A stretch of 64,000 nt of DNA. It comes from a virus. Taxonomy: Duplodnaviria > Heunggongvirae > Uroviricota > Caudoviricetes. Positions 6-45,726 of this stretch are shown in pieces (the first letter of the stretch is position 1; every line of letters begins with the position of its first letter). The notes beneath the pieces are model-generated. The model was not told where the DNA came from and made no database searches. It worked only from the letters and a program-made list of their open reading frames with translations. Location of the stretch: positions 1-64,000 of the IMG/VR virus record IMGVR_UViG_2718218135_000001; one strand, 5' to 3'. Position numbers and translations under genes: made by a program.

Positions 6-3731
<3,726 letters not shown>

Positions 3732-23433: not shown

Positions 23434-23550
23434 CAATTAATACCTTCAGTGTGGGCGTCCGCCTTTACGTAGCGTTTGCCCACCTTTTCAGTCACGCCAC
23501 AATAACGCCATCGAGAAAACAACTTGTTTAAAAACATAAGGAAAAAACAC

Positions 23551-24714: not shown

Positions 24715-24727
24715 AAACAATTTGTTT
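24715..24727. promoter_or_regulatory. AAACAA-N-TTGTTT palindromic operator-like motif upstream of the large methyltransferase
   Basis: aaacaatttgttt, 13 bp before the ATG, preceded by the conserved block taacaccaacaag; same motif at 12 or more other sites. Confidence 0.45.
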
Positions 24728-27703: not shown

Positions 27704-28408
27704 GTGAATATGAAAAATATCCTACTGGCATCATTGTTGGTGGCATCGCCGGCTGTATTTGCAGCCAGCTTTGACTGCCAAAAGGCTTCGGCAGAAATCG
27801 AACACAAAATCTGCGATAACGAACGCCTGTCAAAATTAGACGAACAACTTAGCTCTACCTATTCTAACGCACTCAAAGCAAACCCGGGGGACGCAGACGC
27901 CTTAAAGACGGTTCAGCGTCAATGGGTAAGTATGCGTGGAAAACTCACTGGTGATAAGGCTCTGGAGCTGGCTTATCTAATCCAAATTAATGGCCTCAAG
28001 AGTTTGGATGGTTCGGCCAGCACAGCGGTGGTCAATGAGACACCGAAGCCGGTGCAGAAACAGCCTGAAGTTCAGGAAAAGACAAGTAAGGCAGACACAA
28101 AGCCGGCTAAGAGCGGTAATGAGCTAACTCTGGAGTCATTCCGAGCTAAGTATATTGAGATTGATGGTGAGTACTACAGCACAACATCTCTTCCTAGAGG
28201 GAGTTCGTTCTTATTCACCTGCGCCAGTCGCATTGCCGATGACCAAGTTAATGTCTGGAAGAAGCACGCGGCAAAAGAGGGCAAGATCGACCTTTTCTTT
28301 GAGCTTGAGAGCCGAATACACACCGCGATGCTGAATGCCAATTTTCAGAAGCTGAATAGTGATTTAACTAAAACAGGCATTTGCGATCTGATTACCGCTG
28401 TTCCGTAA
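27704..28408 (+). CDS. secreted protein with DUF1311/LprI-like N-terminal domain
   Basis: Signal peptide, then FDCQKASAEIEHKICDNERLSKLDEQLSSTYSNAL, a pattern I associate with the lysozyme-inhibitor LprI family. Confidence 0.4.
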   Translation: MNMKNILLASLLVASPAVFAASFDCQKASAEIEHKICDNERLSKLDEQLSSTYSNALKANPGDADALKTVQRQWVSMRGKLTGDKALELAYLIQINGLKSLDGSASTAVVNETPKPVQKQPEVQEKTSKADTKPAKSGNELTLESFRAKYIEIDGEYYSTTSLPRGSSFLFTCASRIADDQVNVWKKHAAKEGKIDLFFELESRIHTAMLNANFQKLNSDLTKTGICDLITAVP

Positions 28409-28463
28409 GCCAGATAAGGCCACTAGTTGTGGCCTTAAACAATTTGTTTTATAGATGGTGAAA

Positions 28464-28667
28464 TTAATGGAACCCCAGGCGAACCAAATCCATTGGGCAG
28501 AATAGACCTTCCACACCTTCGATAGACACGCAGTCAGAGCGGCGTAATTGTTCTTCTGATTTGCCTTCTCCGCAGATTTCCTTGATGACTCCCGTTGCAC
28601 CATTCGTTGCCACCATCACTCGGCTGCCGGTAGTGATAGCGTTACGGTTGCGATCATAGGTCTTCAT
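28464..28667 (-). CDS. small hypothetical protein
   Basis: 67 aa, RBS aaaggagga; flanked on both sides by AAACAA-N-TTGTTT motifs (28437, 28752). Confidence 0.4.
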   Translation of the reverse strand: MKTYDRNRNAITTGSRVMVATNGATGVIKEICGEGKSEEQLRRSDCVSIEGVEGLFCPMDLVRLGFH

Positions 28668-28818
28668 CGTTTCCTCCTTTCACATGGGTCAAATCAGGTT
28701 TCAAAAATTGCCGTTTTCCATGTAGGTGCGATTTGCAAAATCTCAAGTGCCAAAACAAATTGTTTTCACCATCTTGTTATTCAATTAACCCGTAAAGTTG
28801 ACCAGTACCGTAATAAAT

Positions 28819-30168
28819 AATACTGTTTATATGTGGGTCTTCCCCGATCATGGTGGGAAGGCTCAGAACTCCATATTCAGCTTACCGTAGTGGAACATCA
28901 CTCCCAGTTTAAAGCGCTCCCGGTTTCGGTATCCCCTGGCTTTTATTCTCAGCAACCTTATCTTGCTGTTAAGTGCCTCCGCATTTCCGTTTGAGACACT
29001 GTGTCGCATCGCATTCAGGATCCCGTACAGCCTTTTTCCTATCGTTTTCGCAGCATTTTTCATCATGGGAACGTCACTGTTAGCCGCCAGCGCCAGCCAT
29101 CTCTGCCAGTCACTCCGCCTTTCCTCGCTCCATGGCCTGTTCCAGATATCCTTTGCCAGCTCTTTCAGCGCCCAGCACTGGCTCGTCAGCTTCATCTGTG
29201 CACGCAGCCACATCAGCTTTTCCTGCCGGGATTCAGTCATCCACTTATCACTGTACTGCCACAGGAAGCGGGTTCCTTTTGCCTGGCGTCGGCTTTCAAC
29301 AGGGAGGTGCGGATGTTCATTCTGACGGGTTTTATCAACTACCTCGCCCAGTTGCTTCGCCACATGGAAGCGGTCAAAGGCGATTTTCTCAACCGCGCTG
29401 GGTAAGTGGATGCGCGCTGCTCTTATATAGCCCGCGTTCATGTCCATTGAGAGCGTTTTGATAGCCAGCAACTGCCCATCAGTGAGTGTGCGAAGATAGC
29501 CGGCAAGACTCTCTGTGCCGCGATCATCCGTTAAGGCCAGCGCCCGACCATCGCGATCGGAGATCACCGTTATGTAACGATGTCCTTTTTTAAAGGCGAC
29601 CTCATCCACATTCATATGACGGGCGGATAATGGCTTTTTTATCCGGGCAAGACCTCGCTTAACTGCCCGGGTCATAATGCCGTCAACCGCATTCCAGCTG
29701 AGCTTAAGTTGCTTCCTGACAGCATCAACGGTGCTGATTTTCAGCCATGAGAGAACGAACAATTCGAACAGCAACGTATACCGGCTTCCGGGGCCAGCCC
29801 ACGGAACAGGCAACGTCTGACAGCCATGCTCCGGACACATAATTCGTGGAACATCGGCTTCAACAATAGTGGTGAACTGGCAGGTATCAAGATGGCGCCA
29901 TTTACGATGACGGTGATCGTGAACAGAACAGGATTTACCGCAGGCCGGACAGGCTAGCCGGGTGTTTTCAGCGATCTCAATAGTGACAGTAACAGAACCG
30001 GCATTTTCATCGAGAGAAAGGGACTTTACCTGCCACGGATCGGACAGGTTGAGAATATGAGCGTAGAGGGACTTTTCGTCCATGGCGGTGACCTCTGGCG
30101 ATTAAATACACCATTATCATGCCTTCAGCCACCACAACAAGGGAAGACCCTTATATGTACAGTATTGC
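28819..30168 (-). mobile_element. ISL3-family insertion sequence (apparently intact)
   Basis: Imperfect ~27 bp terminal inverted repeats (aatactgtttatatgtgggtcttcccc / gggaagacccttatatgtacagtattg) bracket one transposase gene; target-site duplication not evident by eye. Confidence 0.7.
28863..30083 (-). CDS. ISL3-family transposase
   Basis: 406 aa; N-terminal zinc-finger CPACG...H..HRHRKWRHLD and DDE-type core. Confidence 0.8.
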   Translation of the reverse strand: MDEKSLYAHILNLSDPWQVKSLSLDENAGSVTVTIEIAENTRLACPACGKSCSVHDHRHRKWRHLDTCQFTTIVEADVPRIMCPEHGCQTLPVPWAGPGSRYTLLFELFVLSWLKISTVDAVRKQLKLSWNAVDGIMTRAVKRGLARIKKPLSARHMNVDEVAFKKGHRYITVISDRDGRALALTDDRGTESLAGYLRTLTDGQLLAIKTLSMDMNAGYIRAARIHLPSAVEKIAFDRFHVAKQLGEVVDKTRQNEHPHLPVESRRQAKGTRFLWQYSDKWMTESRQEKLMWLRAQMKLTSQCWALKELAKDIWNRPWSEERRSDWQRWLALAANSDVPMMKNAAKTIGKRLYGILNAMRHSVSNGNAEALNSKIRLLRIKARGYRNRERFKLGVMFHYGKLNMEF

Positions 30169-30178
30169 GAGGCGAGCA

Positions 30179-30445
30179 ATGGGCAGCAAGAATTCTAAAT
30201 ATGTGATCGTCTATAGGGGCGAAGCACTCAAGCACCTAATACCCGGACAGTTCGTTTTCTTCCAACGTGAAAAAGAATACGGTGGGGGGTTCTGGCTTGG
30301 TAAAACGCATGAGGATGGGTTCGAATTTGTGCTGGAGCAACCCACTTCACTAAGTTACGGGCTTGCGTATCTGATCAGATTGTCGAGTGTCGAAGCCAGG
30401 TATATGGAGTTTGTTGATGACATAGACGACTTCAAACTCACCTAG
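30179..30445 (+). CDS. hypothetical protein (N-terminus abuts the ISL3 right end)
   Basis: ORF 30119..30445 opens inside the IS inverted repeat; first ATG outside the element is 30179. Confidence 0.35.
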   Translation: MGSKNSKYVIVYRGEALKHLIPGQFVFFQREKEYGGGFWLGKTHEDGFEFVLEQPTSLSYGLAYLIRLSSVEARYMEFVDDIDDFKLT

Positions 30446-30530
30446 TCATCCCTTAAACATTTTGTTTTCTAACTTTTGTTATTTGAGATAATAACACAAA
30501 TAAGAAAATAAATTGTTTAAGGAGTTGATC

Positions 30531-31160: not shown

Positions 31161-31730
31161 ATGGATGTGATGGAAACCCAGAACCAACAAACAAAACCTC
31201 TGAATAATGCTTATGCGTGGCTTCTAGCTTTACTGCCTCTCTTCTTTGGAGCACCGCCAGATGAGTATTTGAATTATGCAATAGTGATAGGTGGAGTCGC
31301 TGGACTCGGCTTTCTGGTGGCTGACAGAATGGCATTGTCTGATGCAGGGTATGAACCACCGGCCATCCTGTGGGGAGTATTTCTCCTTCCGGTCTATCTC
31401 TGGAAACGTGCCACCGTTACAAAAGGCAGTCGACTTCCTTTTATCGTAATCGTCGCGTTGCTTGCTGGTAACATCTTCATCGGTATCCCACACCAGGAAG
31501 AGGTTGCTCTTGAAGAAGCGGCTTGTCCTCTCGTAACGACCATTCTGAAAGAGAATAACGGAACCACAGCGCCGAAATGTATGAAGGTGACAATTCAGGA
31601 CAAGGTGACGGACAAGTTCTATAAAGCGACGGCTACGCTGGATAACGGCAACGACATAAACGTTACTCTGGAACTGACCGGCGAAAGAAACTTTTATGTG
31701 CGCGTTCCGGATGCCTATCTGAACAACTAA
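31161..31730 (+). CDS. membrane protein (multiple predicted TM helices)
   Basis: Hydrophobic segments AWLLALLPLFFG, AIVIGGVAGLGFLV, ILWGVFLLPVYLW, FIVIVALLAGNIFIGI; preferred over the overlapping minus-strand ORF 31230..31883. Confidence 0.45.
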   Translation: MDVMETQNQQTKPLNNAYAWLLALLPLFFGAPPDEYLNYAIVIGGVAGLGFLVADRMALSDAGYEPPAILWGVFLLPVYLWKRATVTKGSRLPFIVIVALLAGNIFIGIPHQEEVALEEAACPLVTTILKENNGTTAPKCMKVTIQDKVTDKFYKATATLDNGNDINVTLELTGERNFYVRVPDAYLNN

Positions 31731-31739
31731 CGGCTGCAA

Positions 31740-33300
31740 CTCGTTGATATTGGCGGTCACAAATTGAGGATTTCTATAAGAGTCCGTTGATCGCCACTTT
31801 CCCCACCACCCTACCCCACTCAATCCCAGGCGTGACAAGGCATTTAAGCCAATTACACCCATAAGAAAACAAATAAATAACACATCAACGTAAAGTCAAC
31901 GCTTTCCCCTGATTTGGTCTAAAAAGTTGATGTTTTCGCACGCCATCTCTTATACCCAAATCCAGCGTACCAGAATCCATCTCCCTGCGACCAAAACGTC
32001 AAAAACGACTCGTGATACCACCCAAAAACAGACACGCTCAGAAGCGCTCCCGTTGCGTTATATTGGACATCTAAACAAGTTGTTTTCAGACACAAGAAAA
32101 CAAGCTAACCACACCCACAGGAAACCCAGAGACGCCATTACCCACATTCCCAAAAACAACCAACCTCTTTATGGCAGGCTACTGAAAAGACCCACCTCTT
32201 CTTCCCAGGCTACCGGACAACCAACCTAACTTTCACAGGCAACTCGAAACATTCATACATGCGATACCCACTACACGCCATTCCCCAAACAGCGAATAAA
32301 CACCAGAACCACTGAAACTCTAACGAAGCCTGTTACCGCAAGGACTCCCTCAATCCCCAAAGACACGAAACAGAACATTCGCGGGGAAACGCCATTACTC
32401 AATACACAAATAACCACAAAAGCCTTTCACGCTCTCAAGACAAACAACTCAAATACAATAACGAAAGGAATCGCCCACCTGCCATTACTCCATACACAGA
32501 GAAGAACAATCACCAAAACAACGAGAACAACCCTGACGAAAACACAGAGAAGAACCACCTCAAGAAGAACGAAACCACATATGCCGGTAGAAAGAACAAA
32601 CCACCCATTTCACCCACAGGAATAGTCGCCGTATTGAGCGTTATCAGAGAGAAGGTTTATGCCCACATAAGAGAGAAAATTCGTGGGAGGTATAAGTGGG
32701 AAGGGAAGGAGGGGTATCGCCACTTTCTTCGTATAAATTCAAGCCATAGTTTTCATCCCCCGTAACGTCCCTATCCACCCCTTCGGTCAGCCTTCGGGCC
32801 ATCCAGGGAAAAGGCCATGTCCCTTTTCAGAAACGGGAGCGTCGCCGCAGGGAAAAGGCTGGAGGTTTTCAGGGAAACGGTGGGAATCCCGCTATACGAA
32901 CCGGGAAAAGGCTGGCTGCCGGTCGGGAAACGGGTACATCCCGGTACAGAGCGAGGGACGACTGCGGGAGCGGTGCGGGAAATCTTCGGGAATGCGCCTT
33001 GCTCTTCGCTCGCCTGAAAATCGCGAGGGAGTGTCGTTCCCTCTCGTGCAGCTGCTGAACTCCATTCTGCCAGACCATCCTCGGGTCTCAAGCGATTTCA
33101 GTAGGTTTTCGGGGAGAAGAAAATTCTGCCCACCAGCCCTGCGGCGCGCGTAGAGCAGAATATCGTAAATACTGGTTCCCGTGTCGTTCCCGGATATTCA
33201 CTGCCCAGCCTGGCTTTCACGACATAAAATCCTTTTTCGCCTTTGTCTTATTGCGACAATAACACCAACAAGTAAACAACATGTTTAGACGTTATATAAA
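31740..33300. other. ~1.5 kb ORF-poor tract: CA-rich/G-poor half followed by phased GGGAAA(A/C)GG repeats
   Basis: No convincing ORF; strong strand skew 31900-32700; GGGAAA(A/C)GG repeats 32800-33000; one AAACAAGTTGTTT copy at 32073. Confidence 0.5.
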
Positions 33301-33318
33301 CGAAGTGAGGATGAAGAG

Positions 33319-33537
33319 ATGATTAAGATGCCTGTGACGGTTGAGGTGTGGGGCGTGGATTCCCTGGCTGAGTGTCTGGATGCAGTGGGGCCGGAGTTGT
33401 ACCGCAAGTTGTGGTCGTTCGTCCCGGCAGAAGGGGAATCGCCCAAAGGGAAGGATATCTGGCACCTGCTTAGTGAAGATGAAAAGCGGGAGCTGGTGGA
33501 CGCGGTACACAGCGAGTTCCCGGACGACGAAGATTAA
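33319..33537 (+). CDS. hypothetical protein
   Basis: 72 aa acidic ORF, RBS gtgagga; motif at 33274 upstream, hairpin at ~33544-33566 downstream. Confidence 0.45.
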   Translation: MIKMPVTVEVWGVDSLAECLDAVGPELYRKLWSFVPAEGESPKGKDIWHLLSEDEKRELVDAVHSEFPDDED

Positions 33538-33676
33538 GAGTGAGACCACCAGCACGGTGGCTTTTGTCGCTATTAACCTCCGGGGCAGCGCAGCACCGTA
33601 ACGATATACTTTGTGGCCGTTTTCTTACTGGTATTGTTTACGCAATTCAGAAAACAACATGTTTAAGGATTGCTTT

Positions 33677-34006
33677 ATGTTTGCAAATATCGACATCAAC
33701 CAAATCAAGAAAATGACTCAAAAAGAGTTTGACCAGTTTTATGAGTTAGAAGGTTGGTCTTCCACGCTGATCAATTCGCGCTGGGTGCTTGAGCTGATGA
33801 CTCGTGATGATGCTCCTGCTTTGATTATTTGCGACATGGGTGAAGATGCTGACTTTATGGATATGAGCGAATTTTGTGTGGACACATACAACCGCAGCCA
33901 GAAGTACTACTTCACATGCGATAGCGAGAATGACGTGATTTCTAAGCTCTATCTTCACCTTGTCCAGCATTGGGACGTGCAGGAATTCCTTGAGTTATTC
34001 GCGTAA
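33677..34006 (+). CDS. hypothetical protein
   Basis: ATG after aagga; motif 33652-33664 upstream; hairpin 34016-34038 downstream. Confidence 0.45.
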   Translation: MFANIDINQIKKMTQKEFDQFYELEGWSSTLINSRWVLELMTRDDAPALIICDMGEDADFMDMSEFCVDTYNRSQKYYFTCDSENDVISKLYLHLVQHWDVQEFLELFA

Positions 34007-34142
34007 GCCCAACCAAAGCCAGCACCGCCTGCTGGCTTAACTTCTCTGTAGCCGCAGGGAAGAACCACCTTTAGATAATTCATGTGCCTGAGCAATATGC
34101 TTTGTAGCCGTTTTTACACTGGTATTATTTACGCCATTGAGA

Positions 34143-34155
34143 AAACAATTTGTTT
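34143..34155. promoter_or_regulatory. AAACAA-N-TTGTTT palindromic motif (representative copy)
   Basis: aaacaatttgttt 12 bp upstream of the ATG at 34167; upstream block tggtattatttacgccattgag is paralogous to the block before 33652. Confidence 0.45.
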
Positions 34156-34166
34156 ACGGAGTGGTG

Positions 34167-34478
34167 ATGAATACTTCATTGGTGCTGGGTCTTGCTGAAG
34201 GCCAGGAGAGAAAAGAAAAACCAACCTTAATGGGGCATCTCACATTGCTGGATATCGTAGCGAATGGGACTTCTATCCGTCTGTTTCGTGAAAAAGCCAT
34301 TACCTTCGACGCGGGCAATTTTACGCGCTATGTGATGGTAGTTCGTCGCCAGCGTGGAAGAGGGTGGATGTCGGTCCAGAAAATGTGGCCAGAGGACCAG
34401 CTTGAACTGGCGCTGATGGAAGCCAACCGTGTCGCCCAACAAGAGATCCAACGAGCGTCTGTTCAGGCGGTAGCTTAA
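34167..34478 (+). CDS. hypothetical protein
   Basis: ATG after ggag; 104 aa. Confidence 0.45.
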   Translation: MNTSLVLGLAEGQERKEKPTLMGHLTLLDIVANGTSIRLFREKAITFDAGNFTRYVMVVRRQRGRGWMSVQKMWPEDQLELALMEANRVAQQEIQRASVQAVA

Positions 34479-34512
34479 ACATGTGCAAGCAGTAGTTAGT
34501 CGAATGTACGAC

Positions 34513-34541
34513 AGCCCCGCCAATCCTTCGGGGCTTTTTTG
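34513..34541 (+). terminator. rho-independent terminator
   Basis: gccccg-ccaatcctt-cggggc followed by TTTTTT. Confidence 0.7.
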
Positions 34542-34599
34542 TATTGTAAGTACTTACTTATGATAATAAAATTAAAAATTAAACACTAAGGAGAGTGAA

Positions 34600-34995
34600 A
34601 TGACCGTTAAACGCGAAAATCTGACCCTGGATATGTATTATGCATCAGAGACGGAAAATGGAGACAAAGTTGCAAAAATTACAATTGTGCTACGCGATAA
34701 TACCTCCGGCGAAGAAGTTCACACCAGTACCTTAACTCGCACCGGCGAGGCCACAAAGGGGAAATATTCGGTGCGTTACCAAAGCATCAGTAATGCTTCT
34801 GACCCTTTACTGATAAAACTGGAAACTCATTTCCGTGGCGCGGATCAGACGTTGTTTGAAAATTTGATGAAAAAGGTCGATACGGTTTATACATCGAGTT
34901 TAAATACCAATAGTACCTGGATGGGACAACACGGTCTGCGAATAATCTCCGGCGAAAAGATCGACACCATTGTCCCTGAAAGCGTATTCGCTTAA
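34600..34995 (+). CDS. hypothetical protein
   Basis: 131 aa, RBS aaggagag. Confidence 0.5.
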   Translation: MTVKRENLTLDMYYASETENGDKVAKITIVLRDNTSGEEVHTSTLTRTGEATKGKYSVRYQSISNASDPLLIKLETHFRGADQTLFENLMKKVDTVYTSSLNTNSTWMGQHGLRIISGEKIDTIVPESVFA

Positions 34996-35003
34996 TCCTC
35001 TTT

Positions 35004-35033
35004 GAATGGCGCGTAAACCGCGCCATTTTCTTA
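35004..35033 (+). terminator. rho-independent terminator
   Basis: aatggcgcg-taaac-cgcgccatt followed by ttctt. Confidence 0.6.
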
Positions 35034-35112
35034 TGCCCGATAACAATTTGTTTTCTGCCTTATCTGATTTGTGAAAATGATTTCACTGAAGCAACTTAAT
35101 AAGGAAACCATC

Positions 35113-35487
35113 ATGGGACTTGATATCTATATCGAGACGCAGCCTAAAAACGATCTGAATAACGAGGCATCCAGAAAGCAGGTTGCTTACTTCCGTAAGT
35201 TCAATGCGCTCGTTGGGTGGATGGAGCGCAACGTAGGTGAAGTCGAAAATTGTGAGCTTTTAGAATTAACGATGAATGACATTTGTTTTCTGAAGGCTCA
35301 TTTGATGCACATAAACGAAAGTAATTGCGAAGAGTACTTGCCTACCCAGGAAGGTTTTTTCTTCGGCAGTCAGGAGTACGATGAAGGTTACTGGCATGAC
35401 GTGGATAAGCTGAAAAAACTTGTGGAAGACCTGATCAGGAACCACGACTTTCACAATAACAGACTGACGTTCCGTGCCTGGTGGTAA
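35113..35487 (+). CDS. hypothetical protein
   Basis: ATG after aaggaaacc; motif at 35042 upstream. Confidence 0.45.
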   Translation: MGLDIYIETQPKNDLNNEASRKQVAYFRKFNALVGWMERNVGEVENCELLELTMNDICFLKAHLMHINESNCEEYLPTQEGFFFGSQEYDEGYWHDVDKLKKLVEDLIRNHDFHNNRLTFRAWW

Positions 35488-35837
35488 ATATGGGCGATTT
35501 CAAGAAACGCCTGAAGGAAAGAGCCGAGATGGTCAGAAATCAAAACGCATCTTCTGTCATCAGATACGCAAGGCAGTTTAGTCGCAACAACAAATCAGTT
35601 GAGGAAAAGATCCTTAGCGCAATCGGGCGATAATTATTAAGGCCACCAGCAGTGGTGGCCTTAAATGACCATCCTGTTTCCCGCAGGCTAAAAACACCAA
35701 CCTCTTACCTCCAGGCAACCGACAAACCCACCTGTTCCCGTCCGGCTACCGCAACTTTCCACTTTGACGCCTTATTCGTACAACGATAATTAACACCAAC
35801 AAGAAAACAATTTGTTATTTACGATAAGGAATTAATC

Positions 35838-36320
35838 ATGAATTTTATCGCTACTGTAAACGCACCCGCACATGGCAATATCGCTGTAACGTTCTCTGAC
35901 ATTGAAAAACGAGTACTTGGTGCATGGCGCGACAATGAGACGGTAGAACTGTCAGCACAAGAAAAATGCATTATTGCACGCGACATCATTGGCAATCGTC
36001 GTTACTCGCGGGTATTTGAGAAAGCATATGTGGTAAATTCTGGATTCGGAACGTTCGTCTTTCCGGTGCGCTCCGGGCGATTCTGCCAGTCCAAGCTGAT
36101 TGAGTTCGCTACGCAGATTTCTGTCTGGATTAAAACTCAATCGTCGTTCAAATTTTCCGACGATGAAGCAGTATCGCAGGGGATGCGGATCGCCAACAAT
36201 GCAATAAAATGCAAAAACATTACGTATGCCGCTGGCGTTGACACATGGAAACTGTTTTGCGCTAACTTTATGCTGAATGTATACGCAAGCAACCGCATCC
36301 ACATCCTTGATGGCGTGTAA
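35838..36320 (+). CDS. hypothetical protein
   Basis: 160 aa, RBS aaggaa; motif at 35805 preceded by taacaccaacaag; hairpin 36327-36352 downstream. Confidence 0.5.
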   Translation: MNFIATVNAPAHGNIAVTFSDIEKRVLGAWRDNETVELSAQEKCIIARDIIGNRRYSRVFEKAYVVNSGFGTFVFPVRSGRFCQSKLIEFATQISVWIKTQSSFKFSDDEAVSQGMRIANNAIKCKNITYAAGVDTWKLFCANFMLNVYASNRIHILDGV

Positions 36321-36867
36321 CTGAGAAGAGGGCCAGAAACGGCCCTTTCTCTATAGCCACCAGCTGCCGCAGGGAAATTTTCAGAAACGGCGAGGAACGC
36401 ATTCATGAGCCGAAGGGAAACGACCATGAAATTTTCTGGAAACGGCGGGGGTCGCCTTTATGTAGAAAACTGAGCGGGAGAAACCCGGAATCGCGCCAGA
36501 AATTGCATAGCGGCGCTGGGTAGTTGCTGGTGGGCTTTCAGCCCCTGGGCCATCCAGATAGCTTTCGCTATGTGATTATGTGAATCCGTGGGTAAATCAC
36601 TGTAAGCGCGTACACGTTGCCCAACGTGGCAATCATATGCGAGCGGATACAAAACAACACAAAGAGCCGATCCGCGCCGACAAATAAACGCGGATCACAT
36701 AGCAAGACTAAAAGCCAATGATTAACCATACTCTATAGCGCAATATAACGCGTTTTAAGCGCGTTAATGTGTTAAGTAATGGGTATGTACTGACAAGGAT
36801 ATAAAAGCGCGTCTATGGCGTTATTTTGGTGCTTATTTTTATGTTGTTGGAGTGAGTTAAAGACAAT

Positions 36868-37216
36868 AAAAAACGCGCCATCATTGGCGCGTTATGGTGG
36901 GAGTATTGGAAACGAAAAAAGCGCCCATAGTGGGCGCTCGATTTTATTTGTGTAAACTGATTTCAAATCCTATTTCTACAAACGCTTTCAACATTAAAAA
37001 GATATCAGCGTCATTCACGTCTGCTTTTTTTCGCTCCTGGTCGTTCAATAAGTCAATTTTGCGCGTTGTTTCATTTATAAACTCGACTGCGCGCCCAGCG
37101 ATCCCAGCGATCCCAGCGATGCGATTAACATAATATTCATTATGGACGTTAACGCCAGCGATAAGAACAAACATGATTAAGCTCCTTAAAACTAGCGCCC
37201 ATAGTGGGCGCTATAT
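36868..37216. repeat. Hairpin cluster: two identical GCGCCCATAGTGGGCGC palindromes, a third GC hairpin and a 9 bp tandem repeat
   Basis: acgcgccatcattggcgcgt (~36870-36892); gcgcccatagtgggcgc at ~36922-36940 and ~37197-37215; (agcgatccc) x3 at ~37095-37125. Confidence 0.6.
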
Positions 37217-37224
37217 CCATCTAA

Positions 37225-37875
37225 TTACGCTTTGAAAGCATCAGCCAGATAGTTATAAAAATCATTTTTAACGAAGCGATATTGCTGTGATCCGTTTTTC
37301 GCTGCACCCATTCCTTTGATTTTTTCGACCAGTCCCAGACGTTCGCAAAGATTGATAAGCTGGTTGGCTTGAGTGTATCCAGCGTCTAATTTTATTTCGT
37401 TGGCTTTTTTCGCTTCATTCATTAAATCGAAAACAGCGCCATTAGTGAACGTCTCGATCTCGTCGTTAATCATATCGATTAGAGCGAATACGCGAGATCC
37501 GGACATATCAGCGACGGAATAAACGCATTTACCAGACTTAATGGATTTAACCAGATAAACCAATTTTTCCAGTGAATAACTATTAGTCATTGCTTCGCGG
37601 AAAAATGCTTCAGGTGCTTGTTTGCTTGCTTTAATCGCGTAGTAAAACACGCCAGCTAATTTTTCATCATTAACAGCGTTTAAAACGTTGTTCGTGAAAT
37701 AAGCTAATTTAGTAGACGCTGCAAGCATGTTAGCTTTATCCGCTTTTGTGTGTGTACCATTTTTATAATGATTGTTATAAGTCTGGGTAGCGTTGTTGGC
37801 TGCAACTTGTAACTCATTAGCGATAACCACAGCAGCGTCGATGATAGCTTTTTTAGAAATGGTAACGTTAGACAT
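37225..37875 (-). CDS. hypothetical protein (low-GC island)
   Basis: 216 aa; low GC relative to flanks; terminator hairpin just downstream, own promoter region upstream. Confidence 0.5.
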   Translation of the reverse strand: MSNVTISKKAIIDAAVVIANELQVAANNATQTYNNHYKNGTHTKADKANMLAASTKLAYFTNNVLNAVNDEKLAGVFYYAIKASKQAPEAFFREAMTNSYSLEKLVYLVKSIKSGKCVYSVADMSGSRVFALIDMINDEIETFTNGAVFDLMNEAKKANEIKLDAGYTQANQLINLCERLGLVEKIKGMGAAKNGSQQYRFVKNDFYNYLADAFKA

Positions 37876-38189
37876 GATGTTAATCCTTAATAAGAGTAAA
37901 AATAAAATTCTTGTATCGTTAGCGTGTTCGCTTTCGATGTGAGTAATTATCGATATGCAGAAATTAAAATCAAGAGTTTTTTACGCGGGAGCGAAAAAAT
38001 TTTTATTCAATAAAAATCAAAGTCTTAGAAATAAAACGCGTTTTCTCGAAGGTGTTGCCTAAATAAATTCCCTATTCGGTCAATCACCCTTATATATTTA
38101 AAGTGAAATCGGGATTAGGGAAAATAAATATAACGGGAAGTGACACATAAAATAATAACCGGACTTAGCCGGTTATCACCCTTATAGAT

Positions 38190-38714
38190 TTAAAACGGTA
38201 AAATCCGTTCGACCCAATCGAAGAGAACTATCGTTCGTCCGCGCTCGCCAACTCTCATTGCGACCTGACAGGCATCAACGCCTAACGAACACCCCTCAAT
38301 TTCACGGCCATCCGCCATGTAGACCCTTATAGACTTTTGCGCCTCATGAGCTTGACGACAAATTTTGAAGAAATCGCGGCGAGATGGCCGATTGTCCACA
38401 TAGTCAGGGTGTACAGTGAGCCTACCTGTAAACATCTTGTCCACTTCGACAGGTGTAATTGTTTCTATGGTGCTAACTCGCTCCAATGGAAGACGAACAC
38501 GATGTTCTTTACTTCCTATAACGGGAGAAAGATCTAGCTTATTGCGTGCGGTAAGCAGACCAATAACGTAAAGACAAAACGTCTGACCATCATCGATCGT
38601 GACCCTTACAGGTATATTCCTTGCCCGTAGGAACTGCAAACTAAACTCCACGTTAGAGTAGTCGCGGGGCCAGACCTCTGCTGGGATGCCGTATGTAATG
38701 TCTGTGATCGTCAT
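38190..38714 (-). CDS. hypothetical protein (low-GC island)
   Basis: 174 aa; start overlaps the upstream stop; aaccggacttagccggtt hairpin downstream. Confidence 0.5.
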   Translation of the reverse strand: MTITDITYGIPAEVWPRDYSNVEFSLQFLRARNIPVRVTIDDGQTFCLYVIGLLTARNKLDLSPVIGSKEHRVRLPLERVSTIETITPVEVDKMFTGRLTVHPDYVDNRPSRRDFFKICRQAHEAQKSIRVYMADGREIEGCSLGVDACQVAMRVGERGRTIVLFDWVERILPF

Positions 38715-39304
38715 TAGTCTACCTTAAGTGGCGTGTCGAGAAGCCCAAACTTAAACTGCTTGCTACCTGCCACGAGGAAGGGGGCTTCGATGTAAATGGT
38801 TTTGTTGTCGATATCTGATTTTGCGGTCTTTTTGATGTCTTTTAGAAGCCTAATTGTTGCTGCGTTGTCCAGAACAAGTACTTTGCCGGTCGCATCATTG
38901 CCGATTTTGCCGTATGTCGTGAACGATTCATTACTGCCAACGCGGATATTAATCGGGCAACCGCTCTTGGCGATCTCATCACAGTACATAGTTCCATCAA
39001 TCACATTTAGTAGACCGTAGGTTGGAACAAGAGCCTTGCCAGAGTTGGTGCTTGTTCCTTCTTTGACAGCTGTACCCATGATTTGAAGGCGCATATGTTC
39101 TGATTCACCGGAAATCAGTGTTTCTTCCGCGTTATCGGAATACCTGAACCATACAGGTTGAACTGTTCCTCTGGCCTCGTATTTTACATTGTCTAGGGTA
39201 GTGAACTTGCTGTACGTTTTTTGCATGTCAGCAACCATATCTGACACTGCATTGGCAGAGAATGATAGAATATAGGTGGTTACTAAGATGGCTAAACGAG
39301 TCAT
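38714..39304 (-). CDS. secreted hypothetical protein (low-GC island)
   Basis: 196 aa with signal peptide MTRLAILVTTYILSFSANA. Confidence 0.5.
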   Translation of the reverse strand: MTRLAILVTTYILSFSANAVSDMVADMQKTYSKFTTLDNVKYEARGTVQPVWFRYSDNAEETLISGESEHMRLQIMGTAVKEGTSTNSGKALVPTYGLLNVIDGTMYCDEIAKSGCPINIRVGSNESFTTYGKIGNDATGKVLVLDNAATIRLLKDIKKTAKSDIDNKTIYIEAPFLVAGSKQFKFGLLDTPLKVD

Positions 39305-39602
39305 TCTGACCTCAAATTAACGATATGCTATTTCCAACAGAAGATGCTGCTTATAAACGCCTCAAGATGAAATCTGAATAATTTGTCTTTGAAAAAATTT
39401 CTCGCCATGAGTGATTTTACGCTCTAGCGAATTAAGAATTTCGTTAATGAAAATATTCATCCACCACCTCTGGCTCAAATTCCTCGGTTGTGAAGCCTAC
39501 AAATATTCGTCAACCGATCAAGAACTTTTTTTTCAGCCGGAGGTGTGCGAAATTGTGATATAAATCACATGCTGACATCTACAGACGCCAGCATATTGAT
39601 GA

Positions 39603-40142
39603 TTATTTGTCCAGCACTTTGTACTTGTTCGTAATCAAACGCTCACCCTTTCTGGTAACTGTAAAACCAAACGGCGCTTTGCTGTTTTTACGTAACACGC
39701 TTTCAGCGAGCGCTTCATCGGTAGGTTGTATAGTTGAATTGTCTATCCAGTCGATGAGGGTAAGAAAGTTTAAAAGTTTCATGCTCGTGACGCCCATCTT
39801 ACAGGCTATGTCACGGACGGTACGAATCTGCCTGCATTTTGTTTCATGTGCTGCGATAGGTGTCTTTGAATTGTTTGGTGTCAGTAACGTATCCAGTGTA
39901 TTAAAGAACCCCCTTGCGGATTCAGACTTAATAAGACCTGAGTCGCTCATATCACACGCGATACGGTACAGAATATTGCTGTTGTTCATGAAGGGATAGT
40001 TCTCAACGAATCTGACGAATGCTTGTGCATTTTTCTCTCCGCATTTGTAATCCAGCGGATTATCTACGCGCCAGAAAAATGCACTGTTGTTTTTTGCGTC
40101 AAAGATATCAACAAATGGTAGTTCAGCTAAATAGTTCATCAT
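39603..40142 (-). CDS. hypothetical protein (low-GC island)
   Basis: 179 aa, no motif recognised. Confidence 0.45.
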   Translation of the reverse strand: MMNYLAELPFVDIFDAKNNSAFFWRVDNPLDYKCGEKNAQAFVRFVENYPFMNNSNILYRIACDMSDSGLIKSESARGFFNTLDTLLTPNNSKTPIAAHETKCRQIRTVRDIACKMGVTSMKLLNFLTLIDWIDNSTIQPTDEALAESVLRKNSKAPFGFTVTRKGERLITNKYKVLDK

Positions 40143-40204
40143 GTGCTCCTTTGTAACTTGACGAGCACATGATGAACTACGAAATAAGGGGAAAAAGTGG
40201 AAGA

Positions 40205-40483
40205 TTACGGCAGCCGTTTGAGAATATCGGCCAGATCTTCTTTGGTCATACCCGAGTTTTCGTAAATCTTCATGACCTTTTCACGAGCCTTTGCAGTAGT
40301 CTCTAATGACGTAGCTATCTTATCAAAATCACCCATCGTCATATTGGACAGCACCAGATTGATGATGTCTGCCTTTGACAGTTTTATGCTGCGTTCACGC
40401 AGTCGATTCTGAAAGGTCTCTAGTTTATCGTTTGCTTTTTCGGTTAACTTAACCTGGCAGTTAATAGCGCGTTTCTCGCTCAT
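40205..40483 (-). CDS. small protein downstream of the helicase (UvsW.1-like position)
   Basis: 92 aa, coupled to the helicase gene (3 nt gap). Confidence 0.4.
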   Translation of the reverse strand: MSEKRAINCQVKLTEKANDKLETFQNRLRERSIKLSKADIINLVLSNMTMGDFDKIATSLETTAKAREKVMKIYENSGMTKEDLADILKRLP

Positions 40484-40485
40484 GC

Positions 40486-42045
40486 TTACTCTCTATCCAA
40501 AACAGTGAAATCGAATGTGCTGCCAACCGGCAAGACCCCCTCGGCAAACCCAGGCGTCGTGTCGATAATGTGTTTCCGCTCATATGAATGCGACATGAGG
40601 TATTTGTTGCTCACGTCGATGAAGTCGGTAATAAAGCACACGTTAGCCTGATTTTTCTTGGCTCGTAAGCCACGACCGACACGCTGTCTCATTTCAACTT
40701 CTGCTTTCCCGCCACCACCCAGAATCACCGCGCCTACGCTTGGAACGTCGACACCAACATCCAGAATGGTTGAACCAATGAGAACATCTATCTTGCCTGC
40801 CGCCAGACTATTAAGTTTTGCTTGTCGGGTAGTCTGGTTTGATTCTCCGTAGATGAAATCGACCTTGAGGCCACTCTCTTTCATCATTTCCATCAAGATC
40901 TGACCATGACGCTTCAGACGAACCAATGTCATACAGTTCAGACCGTGACTCTTGTACATTAGCGCTTCACGCACAATAGCTTCGTTGCGGCCCAGATTAT
41001 AGACGATGCCTAACTGATAGGCTTTCTGGTAAGCCGTGCTCATTCCAACCCTAAAATTCAGGTGTTTTGAAGCAAGTTCGGCTCTAATCCGCGTCTCATC
41101 TGGAGTGTACGCGATTTTATGATATAAAAAGTATGGTTTCGCTAAAATACCTCTGTCGATCAAATATTTCTCCGTTACTTTTATCTCGATGCGACCCGCA
41201 ACGGCCATGAGACGCATATTTGCTTCAGTCGAGTCCTTCATGAACGGCGTAGCTGTCAGCGCCAGACGGTAGTCGGCATTGGTACACAACCGGGCTATAT
41301 CGTAGAAGTTTGAGCCGGATGATTCGTGCGCTTCTTCCAGAATCAGCAGAGAAACGCTGGACAGGAAGCGCTTAACCAATTCCCGGCGTTTCAGGTGATA
41401 CTGTTTTTTCTCTGGAGATGCGTCGCGCGACGGCTCTTCGAGAAAACTAGCAAGGGTCTGAACCGTGGCAACGTTGATATGGCGCGATACCTGAAACTCA
41501 CCAGATCCAATCACCCCAACTTTCTGACCTTTCAGCCACGGCTCGCCATTCTTCGCGCGGTAGTCGATGGATTTCTGGAAGTTCTCTGCCATCTGGAACA
41601 TCAGAACCGAGCGCGTGGTTAAAAACAGCGTCATACGACCAATGCGAGCTGCTGCCTTACACGCTACGTTCGATTTACCGCCACCCGTCGCAATCTGGGC
41701 AATCATCATCCCTTCGCGCACCAGTGTTTCCACTGTCTGATCCTGATACGCGTAGTCCGGGTTATACGGGAATGGATTAACCACCGGATTCGGCTTACCC
41801 AGCGCGGGAGCTTTTTCCTTGCGAACATGCACGCATTTGATGCCAGCTTTCAGAAGATTGGTCGCAACTGGCTTCGCAAACCCAGCCGGGAACGCGTTTT
41901 TACTCCAGTTGAACATCGTGCTGGTCCCTTTCCAGTCACCAGCCTCCACTTCATAGCTCAACATCTCCTGAACAAGCCGTTTCACGTTGTCATCAGCGCC
42001 AGAAATCAGCGCATTGACTGCATTTGATACAATCCGAACAGTCAT
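40486..42045 (-). CDS. SF2 DEAD/DEAH-box helicase (UvsW-like)
   Basis: Motif I ATGGGKS, II LEEAH, III LTATP, VI QRVGRGLR; 519 aa. Confidence 0.7.
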   Translation of the reverse strand: MTVRIVSNAVNALISGADDNVKRLVQEMLSYEVEAGDWKGTSTMFNWSKNAFPAGFAKPVATNLLKAGIKCVHVRKEKAPALGKPNPVVNPFPYNPDYAYQDQTVETLVREGMMIAQIATGGGKSNVACKAAARIGRMTLFLTTRSVLMFQMAENFQKSIDYRAKNGEPWLKGQKVGVIGSGEFQVSRHINVATVQTLASFLEEPSRDASPEKKQYHLKRRELVKRFLSSVSLLILEEAHESSGSNFYDIARLCTNADYRLALTATPFMKDSTEANMRLMAVAGRIEIKVTEKYLIDRGILAKPYFLYHKIAYTPDETRIRAELASKHLNFRVGMSTAYQKAYQLGIVYNLGRNEAIVREALMYKSHGLNCMTLVRLKRHGQILMEMMKESGLKVDFIYGESNQTTRQAKLNSLAAGKIDVLIGSTILDVGVDVPSVGAVILGGGGKAEVEMRQRVGRGLRAKKNQANVCFITDFIDVSNKYLMSHSYERKHIIDTTPGFAEGVLPVGSTFDFTVLDRE

Positions 42046-42109
42046 AAACCTCTTTCCTTCGTGCCTTTTGTATGGTAATTGGCTATTATGTTAAGTAAGT
42101 ACTTACACA

Positions 42110-42808
42110 ATGGATTGTATCAAAAATATGGATGTGAAAATTACGATTCTACAGGTGGAAGTCGCGAACCTGCGTCCGAACCCCTGGAATACCAACTCCG
42201 TTGGGGCGCAAAACTTCGAAAAACTGAAAGGTTCCATCGAAAAGTTGGGCTTTTTTAAGCCAATTCTGGCGCGAGAGCTGGACGGCGGCATTTTTGAGAT
42301 TCTCGGTGGCGAACATCGCTGGCGTGCCGCGATGGAGCAGGGCATTTCAACGGTTCCCGTAATGTCGGTGGGAAAAATTAACGACCTGGTGGCCAAACAG
42401 ATGTCTCTCGTCGATAACGAGCGCTACGGCGAAGACGATCAGATCGCTTTGCAACGCTTAATCGAAGAAATTCAGTCTGAAATTGACTACCGGTTGTCTG
42501 ATATCGCCCCGTATGACGACGAAATGGCGGCAACGCTCGCCAAAGCATCCGTTATCGATCTTGAAGCGCTGGAAGCGCTCTCCCGCGGCGATGACGAGCC
42601 GGTCGGTGAGGACAAACGCGAGAAAATCGAGCGAGTCGGTGCTGAACACCAGACGATGCGCTTCAAGGTGACGTTCGATGCGTCAGATCGCGTCGCCGAT
42701 ACCATCAAAACCATCATCAAAGAGCAGGGAATCAATACCGGTAACGAAATGGAGAACGCCGGGGAAGCCTTGGTGTGGCTGGTCGACTACTACAAGGAGC
42801 GTATGTAA
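42110..42808 (+). CDS. ParB N-terminal-domain (ParB/sulfiredoxin-like) protein
   Basis: LRPNPWNTN and ILGGEHRWRAA motifs of the ParB nuclease-like fold; acidic C-terminal half. Confidence 0.55.
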   Translation: MDCIKNMDVKITILQVEVANLRPNPWNTNSVGAQNFEKLKGSIEKLGFFKPILARELDGGIFEILGGEHRWRAAMEQGISTVPVMSVGKINDLVAKQMSLVDNERYGEDDQIALQRLIEEIQSEIDYRLSDIAPYDDEMAATLAKASVIDLEALEALSRGDDEPVGEDKREKIERVGAEHQTMRFKVTFDASDRVADTIKTIIKEQGINTGNEMENAGEALVWLVDYYKERM

Positions 42809-43476
42809 TGACCAAGAACTTTGAAATCGTATATCGAAACCCGGCAGAACTTATCCCGTATGAGATGAACGCCAAAAAACATGACGAACAGCAGATCCAC
42901 GACCTGGCGGCTGCCATCAAAAAGCGCGGTTTTGACCAGCCGATCACGGTCGACAAGCACGACGTCATCATTACTGGTCACGGTCGTCGCGAGGCGGCAC
43001 TTCTGGCTGGTCTGGAGCGTGTGCCTGTCATCGTTCGCGACGATCTGAGCGAAGAAGAAGTGAAGGCGAAGCGTCTTGAAGACAACCGCCTGGCCAGTAT
43101 TGACTACGACGCCATCAAATTGCAGCAGGAACTGGAGTCCCTGGTGCTGGGTGACGTTGAGGTCTTTGGTTTTGAAGAGCGAGAGCTGAACGTGCTTGTT
43201 GGCAGCATGACCGAAGAGATGGAAACAGGCTCTCTGGTGCTCGATCTGGGTGAAGAGACGGAACGCCAGAAAGAAGAGCACACCGAGATCAGTCGCGAAG
43301 TGGCCTCTGAAGAAGTCCGAGTCATCGACGTATTGGGCTTTAAAACGCTCCCTGCTGGCTCTGCCATTGTGGTTGGGGATTTGCTTGCCCACATGGAAGA
43401 AATTACGGGAGAAAGCGGGGTAGACGCTTTCGTGGCGTATGCGGAGAAAGTTTCCTCTGGGGAGCTGGCTGCATGA
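42808..43476 (+). CDS. ParB N-terminal-domain protein (second paralogue)
   Basis: ITGHGRREAA motif; start overlaps the upstream stop (TAATG). Confidence 0.5.
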   Translation: MTKNFEIVYRNPAELIPYEMNAKKHDEQQIHDLAAAIKKRGFDQPITVDKHDVIITGHGRREAALLAGLERVPVIVRDDLSEEEVKAKRLEDNRLASIDYDAIKLQQELESLVLGDVEVFGFEERELNVLVGSMTEEMETGSLVLDLGEETERQKEEHTEISREVASEEVRVIDVLGFKTLPAGSAIVVGDLLAHMEEITGESGVDAFVAYAEKVSSGELAA

Positions 43477-44111
43477 GCAAATACACCATCAACGTATCGT
43501 TTCAGACCCGCGTGAACAAAACCACGCGCACGCTGGAGATTGCCGAATCGTTCGGTCTTGGCCTGGACGAAAAAGAGTGGACGCTTTACGACAATCTGGA
43601 GCTGGAAGTGAAGCAGGGCGATGTGGTGTACATCACCGGCCAATCCGGTTCCGGTAAATCCGTTGTGCTGCGCGAGCTGCAACGCCAGATGAAGGATGAA
43701 GGGCTTTCTGTAGCCTCCATCGATGACTTTGCCTTCGACAATGAGGTTAACGTCATTGACCAGCTGGGCAAAACCACCAGCGAAGCGCTGGGGCTGCTGT
43801 CTATGGCCGGATTGAATGACGCCTATCTCTTTGTGCGTAAGCCATTCGAGATGTCTGACGGCCAGAAATACCGTCTCAAGATCGCCAAGCTGATCGAGTC
43901 CGGCGCGAAAGTCTGGGCTGCCGACGAATTTGGCGCTGTTCTCGACCGTGTAACCGCCCAGGTTGTGGCGTCGAACCTCCAGCGTGCCGCCCGTAAGGTT
44001 GGTGCGACGGTAATGGTGGCGACGACCCACGAAGACCTGAAGAACGCGCTGCGCCCGGATATGCAGATCACCAAGCACTACAAAGAACGCGTGAAGGTGG
44101 AATATGCCTGA
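43473..44111 (+). CDS. compact ABC-type ATPase
   Basis: Walker A GQSGSGKS, signature-like SDGQKYRLKIA, Walker B VWAADEFGAVLD, H-loop-like TTHE; 212 aa. Confidence 0.55.
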   Translation: MSKYTINVSFQTRVNKTTRTLEIAESFGLGLDEKEWTLYDNLELEVKQGDVVYITGQSGSGKSVVLRELQRQMKDEGLSVASIDDFAFDNEVNVIDQLGKTTSEALGLLSMAGLNDAYLFVRKPFEMSDGQKYRLKIAKLIESGAKVWAADEFGAVLDRVTAQVVASNLQRAARKVGATVMVATTHEDLKNALRPDMQITKHYKERVKVEYA

Positions 44112-45254: not shown

Positions 45255-45263
45255 GGATTTGCC

Positions 45264-45530
45264 ATGACGTTGACCGATAAACAAAAAGACATCATCAAAA
45301 CCATCAATTTAGGCCATGAGCGTGGGTATCTGCTCGATCTGGACGAGCTGCTTGAGGTTCTGCCGTACAAAACGACCAAACAGAGTATGCAGTTCTCTAT
45401 CCGCGCACTGGTGAAAAAGGGGCTGGTGGAGAAGGGAATGTGCCGCCAGCGCGGCGATTCAGGTTATCACCGTCGCACGCTGGGACTGACCACGTTAGGT
45501 CGTGCAAGAGCCAAATTACTGGTGATGTAA
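45264..45530 (+). CDS. small winged-helix-like DNA-binding protein (putative)
   Basis: 88 aa, basic C-terminus; weak assignment. Confidence 0.3.
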   Translation: MTLTDKQKDIIKTINLGHERGYLLDLDELLEVLPYKTTKQSMQFSIRALVKKGLVEKGMCRQRGDSGYHRRTLGLTTLGRARAKLLVM

Positions 45531-45533
45531 ACC

Positions 45534-45630
45534 GGTCTGGGAGCCAGATTAAGAACCTGCTTCCGTATATATAATTAACTAAGTGATTAATTAAATATAT
45601 ACGGAAGCAGGTTCTGAAGGCTCCCCAGCC
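45534..45630. repeat. ~97 bp nested palindrome (paralogue of 20018-20133) just upstream of terS
   Basis: Perfect 20 bp inverted repeat gaacctgcttccgtatatat / atatatacggaagcaggttc around a 22 bp AT-rich centre; outer arms ggtctgggagcc / ggctccccagcc. Confidence 0.65.
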
Positions 45631-45726
45631 CGATTTTAAACACCCAGAAAACAAATTGGTTAGGCACAGAATTAAACAAGTTGTTTAGGAGCGCAAGGAT
45701 GCGCTCTGAGTGTTTTAGAGGGACCT

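Follow-up and report, generated by a model that had tools for sequence, protein, structure and literature searches.

Short regulatory sites repeated across a phage or plasmid genome are known from a few systems. In the plasmid prophage P1, sites for the C1 repressor are scattered at the heads of many lytic units, where they overlap sigma-70 promoters or lie just downstream of them. IncP plasmids carry a global KorA/KorB regulon of short palindromes placed at many promoters; OB, the site of KorB, spans 13 bp with palindromic 6-1-6 arms (TTTAGCsGCTAAA). A repeat of another kind occurs in the PeSL (promoter-early stem-loop) cassettes of T4-type phages, which Arbiol et al. reportedly described in 2010 as arrays of small open reading frames (ORFs) without known function, each with a repeated promoter and a stem-loop, the repeats shuffling ORFs as recombination joints. 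In cluster A mycobacteriophages, one short site, the stoperator of L5 gp71, recurs tens of times in small intergenic gaps over the genome, and prophage silencing through it is believed to act at promoters as well as inside transcription units (PMC9283540). Here we analyzed a window of 64,000 nucleotides, positions 1 to 64,000 of the IMG/VR record IMGVR_UViG_2718218135_000001 (Caudoviricetes), in which a 13-bp palindrome with 6-1-6 arms, AAACAAnTTGTTT (hereafter PAL-A), recurs between genes. We favor, with some reserve, the reading that PAL-A is a double-stranded-DNA operator used for repression and carried in a mobile promoter module of SSU5-like phage-plasmids. Such elements are common in Escherichia coli, Salmonella and Klebsiella, and their way of holding lysogeny is essentially unstudied. 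The sole regulator named in the literature we searched is a 'putative repressor' specific to the E. coli phage-plasmid Cyrano, which has no SSU5 counterpart in the annotation compared, and no account of the motif, whether in SSU5 or in pHCM2, turned up in our literature searches.

The window itself derives from an SSU5-like phage-plasmid, since positions 22000-46900 match Salmonella phage SSU5 at ~91% identity over 64% of their length; the E. coli phage-plasmids Cyrano, PhiR41_1 and CMS-2020a and Klebsiella relatives such as pJN2-26 also match this region. Seven exact copies of PAL-A were found in the window, compared with 0.01 expected, and 14 copies with at most one mismatch, compared with 0.37 expected (0 of 100 shuffled sequences reached 14); a two-mismatch scan of the window added no further site. 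The copies start at 23517, 24715, 28437, 28753, 30455, 30506, 32073, 33274, 33652, 34143, 35041, 35805, 45649 and 45674, and all 14 lie between ORFs. An earlier note on this DNA had reported a motif AAACAA-N-TTGTTT at a set of listed places, preceded by one of two blocks, taacaccaacaag or tttacgc[ca]att[cg]ag; our scan returned exactly those places, and both blocks are present.

The complete SSU5 genome contains 20 PAL-A sites (at most one mismatch), every one of them intergenic, in a genome of which 11.6% is intergenic (P = 2e-19), and Cyrano contains 18. With 14 copies in the window, PAL-A therefore has the genome-wide distribution of a single intergenic site that is characteristic of dispersed operators. 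In SSU5 it precedes terS (two copies), parA, dnaB, cobT, nrdB, the large methylase and the small-gene cassettes, and it flanks a ydfZ-like gene; SSU5 and Cyrano alike have it ahead of the methylase and of terS, parA, dnaB, cobT and nrdB. It thus belongs to the genomes of this family as a whole and not to the cassette array, and the earlier description of a regulon of small-gene cassettes needs changing on this point. The palindrome is conserved across the E. coli, Salmonella and Klebsiella relatives and is identical even in the most divergent relatives found; it stays invariant across genera though the neighboring sequence has diverged to less than 80% identity. When viral contigs were scanned for an exact 17-mer, the only matches beyond SSU5-like loci were isolated chance ones in AT-rich contigs.

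To describe the surroundings of PAL-A, we reduced 87 loci to 83 contexts that were pairwise less than 80% identical, and counted as strong -10-like hexamers those with at least 5 of 6 matches to TATAAT. These hexamers peaked at two positions relative to the PAL start, -19/-20 (19 cases) and +32 (11 cases; 19 nt after the PAL end), compared with 0.37 per position expected. A TGn triplet preceded 34 of the 44 hexamers in register, compared with 2.75 expected, which is the signature of an extended -10 sigma-70 promoter; typical forms were TGC-GATAAT, TGG-TATTAT, TGA-GATAAT and TGT-GAAAAT. The hexamer is followed by AACACC or TTACGCC and then by A, and judging from this arrangement transcription likely starts ~7 nt after the hexamer, at the A that follows CC. 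Extended -10 promoters need no -35 element and should fire unaided. Because the promoters are of this type, a classical scan (TTGACA-N16-18-TATAAT) detected none of those associated with PAL-A.

Two placements can thus be distinguished. In the downstream type, PAL-A lies 13-14 bp after the hexamer, at approximately +8 to +20, and in the upstream type it lies 19 bp before the hexamer, at approximately -44 to -32, often directly 3' of the hairpin of the preceding gene. A few promoters carry both copies, with centers 51 bp apart (30455/30506 in the window, 88319/88370 in SSU5 and 14970/15021 in PhiR41_1). By this fixed -10 register, PAL-A falls within the RNA polymerase footprint of the promoters, as is usual for dispersed operators. 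The flanks are asymmetric: AGA stands 5' of PAL in 41 of the 83 contexts and TCT stands 3' in 15 of the 83, on the promoter-proximal side in both types. We also considered a divergent minus-strand promoter at upstream-type copies, and rejected it because minus-strand hexamers are poorly conserved. The modules of the cassette array and the double-operator promoter are as follows.

33252..33286, plus strand: module of cassette 1, with TGC and the -10 hexamer GACAAT (33255-33260), 13 nt (AACACCAACAAGT) and PAL-A (33274-33286); gene 33319..33537; hairpin 33546-33560.
33629..33664, plus strand: module of cassette 2, with TGG and the -10 hexamer TATTGT (33632-33637), 14 nt and PAL-A (33652-33664); gene 33677..34006; hairpin 34016-38.
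34120..34155, plus strand: module of cassette 3, with TGG and the -10 hexamer TATTAT (34123-34128), 14 nt and PAL-A (34143-34155); gene 34167..34478; hairpin 34514-34.
34540..34572, plus strand: promoter of cassette 4, without PAL-A, TTGTAA-17-TAAAAT, with GTAAGTACTTAC (34546-34557) over the -35 element and spacer; gene 34600..34995; hairpin 35005-27.
35041..35078, plus strand: module of cassette 5, upstream type, with PAL-A (35041-35053), 19 nt, TGT and the -10 hexamer GAAAAT (35073-35078); genes 35113..35487 and 35490..35633; hairpin 35637-64.
35782..35817, plus strand: module of cassette 6, with the -10 hexamer GATAAT (35785-35790), 14 nt (TAACACCAACAAGA) and PAL-A (35805-35817); gene 35838..36320; hairpin 36330-45.
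30455..30518, plus strand: double-operator promoter, with PAL-A (30455-30467), 19 nt, TGA and GATAAT (30487-30492), 13 nt and PAL-A (30506-30518); ATG at 30531.

The six small genes that the earlier note had described, each with its own upstream region and terminator hairpin, are thus all present as ORFs with G+C-rich hairpins. All six main ORFs match phage protein families of unknown function (PHROG matches, no Pfam), and the short ORF 35490..35633 matched no family. The motif had been placed before these genes, 12-25 bp from the ATG. It does precede five of the six cassettes, the exception being gene 34600, which has GTAAGTACTTAC instead, and the distance approximately holds for three (11-20 nt at 33652, 34143 and 35805), but not for the copies at 33274 (32 nt) and 35041 (59 nt). 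A position simply before the ATG is therefore not the rule: the motif takes one of two alternative positions, upstream or downstream of the -10 element, and the 35041 copy lies beyond that element.

We then compared the evidence for an element of DNA with that for an element of RNA. Both halves of PAL-A are conserved in sequence, with no compensatory or two-mismatch variants, and folding of the isolated 13-mer yields only -0.7 kcal/mol. PAL-A is spaced relative to the -10 element and not to the Shine-Dalgarno (SD) sequence or ATG, the gaps to the start codon ranging from 11 to 84 nt. In a divergent SSU5-like contig (L204), every PAL copy of the cassettes stands upstream of the -10 element, and the leaders contain none. 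Window gene 34167..34478, which has PAL only downstream, is orthologous to one of these L204 genes (871..1200; 49% identity, E 5e-26). Because orthologous genes use PAL on either side of the -10 element, PAL-A appears to be a DNA operator in the polymerase footprint rather than a leader RNA element.

Expression was taken from the published transcriptome of a Cyrano lysogen (LF82), covering all Cyrano genes (PMC9928086, S1 table). The first genes behind 17 of the 18 Cyrano PAL-A sites were at 5.7-25.5 normalized counts, compared with a phage median of 9.8, which is the lysogen silence found with dispersed operators; parA is the exception. Since extended -10 promoters should fire alone and yet the PAL-A genes are silent, something holds these promoters off in the lysogen, and repression at PAL-A is the simplest reading. 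The same data bear on the earlier suggestion that the cassettes are moron-like. Their anatomy agrees with it, as each has its own promoter and terminator, but expression from the repressed prophage was not observed: the cassette orthologues CYRAN_105-108, 110 and 111 were at 5.7-25.5, near the median of 9.8 and below the authors' moron cut-off of 49 (PMC9928086), and only the small second ORF CYRAN_109 exceeded it (57.9). The cassettes are moron-shaped, not moron-expressed.

In the mechanism that we propose, the core of the module is an extended -10 sigma-70 promoter consisting of TGn, a hexamer such as GATAAT, TATTAT or GAAAAT and a discriminator of 6 nt whose last two letters are CC; the next A is probably the start. 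Both PAL positions would lie inside the RNA polymerase footprint, and a symmetric dimer bound to PAL-A would keep ~20 rightward units shut during the plasmid-prophage state. The silenced units would include terS, dnaB, nrdB and the methylase in addition to the small-gene cassettes, and release of the dimer would open all of them together. The enrichment at heads of transcription units, the fixed promoter register and the conservation across genera are what a shared trans-acting regulator predicts, and to this extent the earlier proposal of one palindrome-binding regulator is supported.

The further claim that a single regulon is involved is not. A second palindrome, GTAAGTACTTAC, extended to (A)TAG-GTAAGTACTTAC-CTA(T) over ~20 bp, has 16 sites in the window at up to two mismatches, compared with 0.9 expected (3875, 8260, 13273, 14398, 14548, 19392, 20450, 22596, 26429, 34546, 36783, 42095, 47628, 49142, 51069 and 60679), and more than 20 sites each in SSU5 and Cyrano. 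It falls in the spacer of a sigma-70 match (at least 8/12) for 44% of 43 non-redundant sites, compared with 4.3% at random positions, a typical promoter being TTGAAA-N17-TATCAT. In the window it usually stands just 3' of a stop codon and also occurs in the late operon; in SSU5, 16 of 22 sites lie at most 45 nt after a gene end. This palindrome serves many genes, among them the one cassette without PAL-A (site 34546), whose L204 orthologue keeps the same palindrome, and the ParB-like operon, whose ATG follows site 42095 by 3 nt, in the region where the leftward and rightward gene blocks diverge. There are therefore at least two promoter-operator classes. Just after another copy, in Cyrano 78657-78791 (CYRAN_81; window ~20460-20700), a 44-codon ORF reaches 117 counts in the lysogen, compared with the median of 9.8, and may represent a small RNA or small protein made by the prophage.

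The PAL-A module also appears to be mobile. Cassette content differs among close relatives, and at Cyrano 95801 the promoter half of window cassette 1 is fused to the gene of cassette 2, with the switch inside PAL. From its sequence, this junction is the product expected if PAL-to-PAL recombination had deleted one cassette. Copies of this 30-60 bp module stand between genes that are otherwise unrelated, so that it can act as a patch of homology for cassette gain, loss and re-joining, and the sequences point to PAL-A as the joint at which small genes are swapped between relatives. As in PeSL arrays, then, a repeated promoter and a stem-loop surround small ORFs in a variable region, with one clear junction in the repeat.

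Three proteins encoded in the window are candidates for the PAL-A binder.

45264..45530, plus strand: 88-aa winged-helix protein; all family members share the residues of the predicted recognition helix and wing.
38190..38714, minus strand: FljA-family protein (full-length match to Pfam PF03614, E 6e-69), modeled as two tandem Sm-like domains.
40205..40483, minus strand: 92-aa ribbon-helix-helix (RHH)-like protein, its fold read from sequence, in the leftward gene block.

We would rank them, tentatively, in this order, with a host protein last. None of the host transcription-factor consensus sequences considered (KdgR, PurR, MntR, PhoP and others) is known to match the 6-1-6 spacing. A search for homologues of the winged-helix protein returned, among the matches listed, only SSU5-like relatives at 70% identity or more. 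Covariation between binder and site, sought in 80 loci around the winged-helix gene and in the most divergent contigs with FljA-like and winged-helix genes, gave no signal, because PAL-A does not differ between any of them and the three candidate genes were found together in every case. The RHH-like orthologue is the most highly expressed conserved gene of the leftward block in the lysogen (114 counts, with 46 for the helicase), and the protein looks more like an immunity-specific switch protein. The leftward block (36400-42109, minus strand) diverges from the plus-strand block 42110-45530; in the Cyrano lysogen the former is on and the rightward operon, from the ParB-like genes to the winged-helix gene, is silent. 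The two ParB_N proteins are encoded at 42110..43476, and their Cyrano counterparts are at 5.0 and 9.5 counts. The 64-bp gap between the blocks (42046-42109) looks like a genetic switch region.

Several points weigh against repression by a symmetric DNA-binding dimer. The winged-helix gene is nearly silent in the overnight-LB lysogen (7.8, compared with the median of 9.8) and reaches only ~15-90 fragments per kilobase per million in other conditions. Half-site centers 7 bp apart are unusual for a helix-turn-helix dimer. The FljA homologue, which is expressed in the lysogen, is predicted to have an Sm/Hfq-like fold with neither a helix-turn-helix nor another DNA-binding motif, and the DNA-facing strand residues of the RHH-like protein vary (N/H/Y/S/F and K/Q/P/A; 33-100% identity) while PAL-A is constant. 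Moreover, parA stands behind a perfect PAL-A and is nevertheless expressed in the lysogen (49.8), and AGA is always on the promoter side, an asymmetry that a symmetric dimer does not explain. Finally, the start register is read from sequence, and part of the fixed spacing may come from common descent of the module rather than from selection.

The alternative that survives best places the operator in RNA, and we regard it as unlikely. The FljA-family protein would bind AGAAAACAAnUUGUUUA just 5' of the SD sequence and block translation of the first cistron, after which the mRNA would be degraded or its transcription terminated; Salmonella FljA acts in this way on fliC mRNA. Consistent with this possibility, the FljA-like protein is modeled with two Sm/Hfq-like domains, its gene is in the leftward block opposite to the lytic genes, and the Cyrano orthologue is expressed in lysogens (18 counts overnight and log2 7-8 in other conditions, similar to a CI repressor in the same data). 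In addition, most PAL-A copies stand 11-25 nt before the ATG, beside the SD sequence, and the fliC leader of Salmonella and Citrobacter contains CATCAAGTTGTAA, an 8/12 match with an identical CAAnTTGT core, 17 nt before the ATG. A match of this quality is, however, expected by chance in approximately one of ten leaders by our estimate, and the E. coli leader has a 4-nt spacer.

Folding of the leaders gave a similarly mixed picture. In cassettes 2 and 3 (33638-33676 and 34129-34166), the stretch upstream of PAL can pair with the SD region that follows PAL, and the paired segments of the two cassettes differ in a covarying manner (GCAAUUC/GGAUUGC and CGCCAUU/AGUGGUG); these leaders could, as read from their sequence, fold into a hairpin that hides the SD sequence with PAL at its tip. 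Over 26 non-redundant sites, flank pairing was weak (-3.9 compared with -3.25 kcal/mol, permutation p = 0.016) and strong in only ~6, so that we rejected SD sequestration by a hairpin as a general mechanism; the PAL hairpin itself is marginal and shows no compensatory changes. PAL-A lies in the 5' leader for downstream-type copies, but upstream-type copies are absent from the mRNA of their own promoter, and the L204 arrays consist of that type alone, including the orthologue of a downstream-type gene. The register with the -10 element, the exact two-fold symmetry, which is unexpected for a single-stranded RNA site, and the variation of the FljA homologue (53-99% identity) beside an invariant PAL-A also speak for DNA.

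A bolder form of the RNA explanation, in which the FljA-family Sm-fold protein would be a master silencer of ~20 operons and Salmonella FljA a domesticated copy that still recognizes the CAAnUUGU core in the fliC leader, seems to us quite unlikely. The FljA-like protein is 36-38% identical to chromosomal FljA, and the family is carried overwhelmingly on SSU5-like elements of ~105-115 kb across Enterobacteriaceae, which suggests a phage-plasmid origin of the Salmonella phase-variation repressor.

An improbable alternative is that PAL-A is a switch of the lytic cycle. The winged-helix protein, made from the induced ParB-like operon, would bind PAL-A, repress at +14 and activate near -38 or ahead of terS, and so time early-to-late expression, while lysogen silence would have another source, such as the second palindrome, H-NS or roadblocks. 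The position of the winged-helix gene immediately upstream of the double PAL-A ahead of terS, its near absence of expression in the overnight lysogen, and DNA-contact residues as invariant as PAL-A itself agree with such a role, and position-dependent dual action is common for phage regulators. Nevertheless, promoters that are active alone must be held off by something in lysogens, and most PAL-A promoters have no second-palindrome site; orthologues, furthermore, swap the -38 and +14 positions, which is hard to square with opposite regulatory signs. The last alternative, namely a selfish or merely inherited promoter cassette with no dedicated regulator, in which the palindrome would be a recombination patch or structural DNA element as in T4-type promoter-stem-loop units, accounts for the chimeric junction exactly at PAL, for the homology of the whole 30-60 bp module rather than of PAL alone and for the differing cassette content of close relatives, but is highly improbable given that conservation is far stronger in the 13-mer, to the same degree in its two halves, than elsewhere in the module, that the 13-mer is invariant across genera and that it also stands alone, with no module around it, at 28437 and 32073 and in the SSU5 nrdA-nrdB and dnaB gaps.

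Returning to the repressive DNA operator, we compared PAL-A with the known systems. P1 resembles the present case in being a plasmid prophage with dispersed sites at the heads of transcription units, but its operators, 17-mers (ATTGCTCTAATAAATTT), lack the symmetry of the 13-bp PAL-A, and no C1 homologue was seen among the proteins scanned. The KorB site shares the 13-bp 6-1-6 form and differs in sequence, and the ParB_N proteins encoded here are silent in the lysogen. PeSLs are found in virulent phages and lack an operator; the present repeat, in contrast, includes a palindrome, and lysogens do not express the genes behind it. Lambdoid morons are likewise small genes inserted between genes with their own promoter and terminator, but they are defined by expression from the repressed prophage, and the cassette orthologues are at background. 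As for FljA and fliC, an FljA homologue is encoded here, most PAL-A copies are in the leader just 5' of the SD sequence like the fliC target, and the CAAnTTGT core is common to both; unlike that target, PAL-A is palindromic, tied to the -10 element and also present at untranscribed positions. A monomer binds the L5 stoperators, which have no symmetry and follow the direction of transcription (PMC9283540), whereas PAL-A is symmetric and in fixed -10 register. By analogy, PAL-A is best read as working like the P1 C1, L5 stoperator or IncP KorA/KorB regulons while being a member of none.

Given two palindromes, the promoter architecture of each and a small set of conserved regulators, lysogeny control in these elements becomes open to a few direct experiments. 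The module explains how the hypervariable small-gene region is rebuilt, and it offers a compact, probably repressible, -35-independent promoter for engineering.

The remaining PAL-A copies of the window are as follows.

23517..23529, plus strand: PAL-A downstream of the -10 hexamer CACAAT, 21 nt before ATG 23551.
24715..24727, plus strand: PAL-A downstream of TGA and AATAAT, 12 nt before ATG 24740 of a 560-aa methyltransferase.
28437..28449, unstranded: PAL-A adjoining a hairpin (GGCCAC..GTGGCC) between the convergent genes 27710..28408 (plus) and 28464..28667 (minus).
28753..28765, unstranded: PAL-A 86 bp upstream of the minus-strand gene 28464..28667.
32073..32085, plus strand: PAL-A in an ORF-poor C/A-rich tract, conserved in SSU5, Cyrano, PhiR41_1 and pJN2-26.
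45649..45686, plus strand: terS leader, with PAL-A at 45649-45661 and 45674-45686, 25 bp apart; conserved hairpin 45690-45707; terS ATG at 45727.

The hairpin of the terS leader, GAGCGCAAGGATGCGCTC followed by TGAGTGTTTT, has compensatory changes in its stem in three relatives (L029, L193 and L195). Its loop, CAAGGAUG, resembles the CsrA high-affinity consensus, and a second GGA stands in the SD sequence; the hairpin might be a CsrA site or might terminate transcription in the leader. A large inverted repeat (45553-45616), with arms of ~26 nt (GAACCTGCTTCCGTATATATAATTAA and TTAATTAAATATATACGGAAGCAGGTTC), separates the winged-helix gene from the terS promoter region. Coordinate 1 of the SSU5 record corresponds to window position ~45594, just 5' of terS and inside this repeat, for which reason the repeat may be a packaging site or a strong bidirectional terminator.

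An insertion sequence at ~28820-30166, with a 406-aa transposase (28863..30083, minus strand), is 98% identical to a segment in Enterobacter phages. It sits between the PAL-A copy at 28753 and gene 30155..30445, and cuts that gene off from its SSU5-type upstream region. A scan for the box CTGT-N8-ACAG, as a sign of SOS control, found none within the window. The name of one matching relative refers to the KPC carbapenemase. The ORF-poor tract is strongly C/A-rich on the plus strand and then carries clustered repeats of the GGGAAA(A/C)GG type (31730-32640 and 32800-33000); these repeats recur 3' of the cassette array (36360-36460) and may be iterons, or a partition or origin element.

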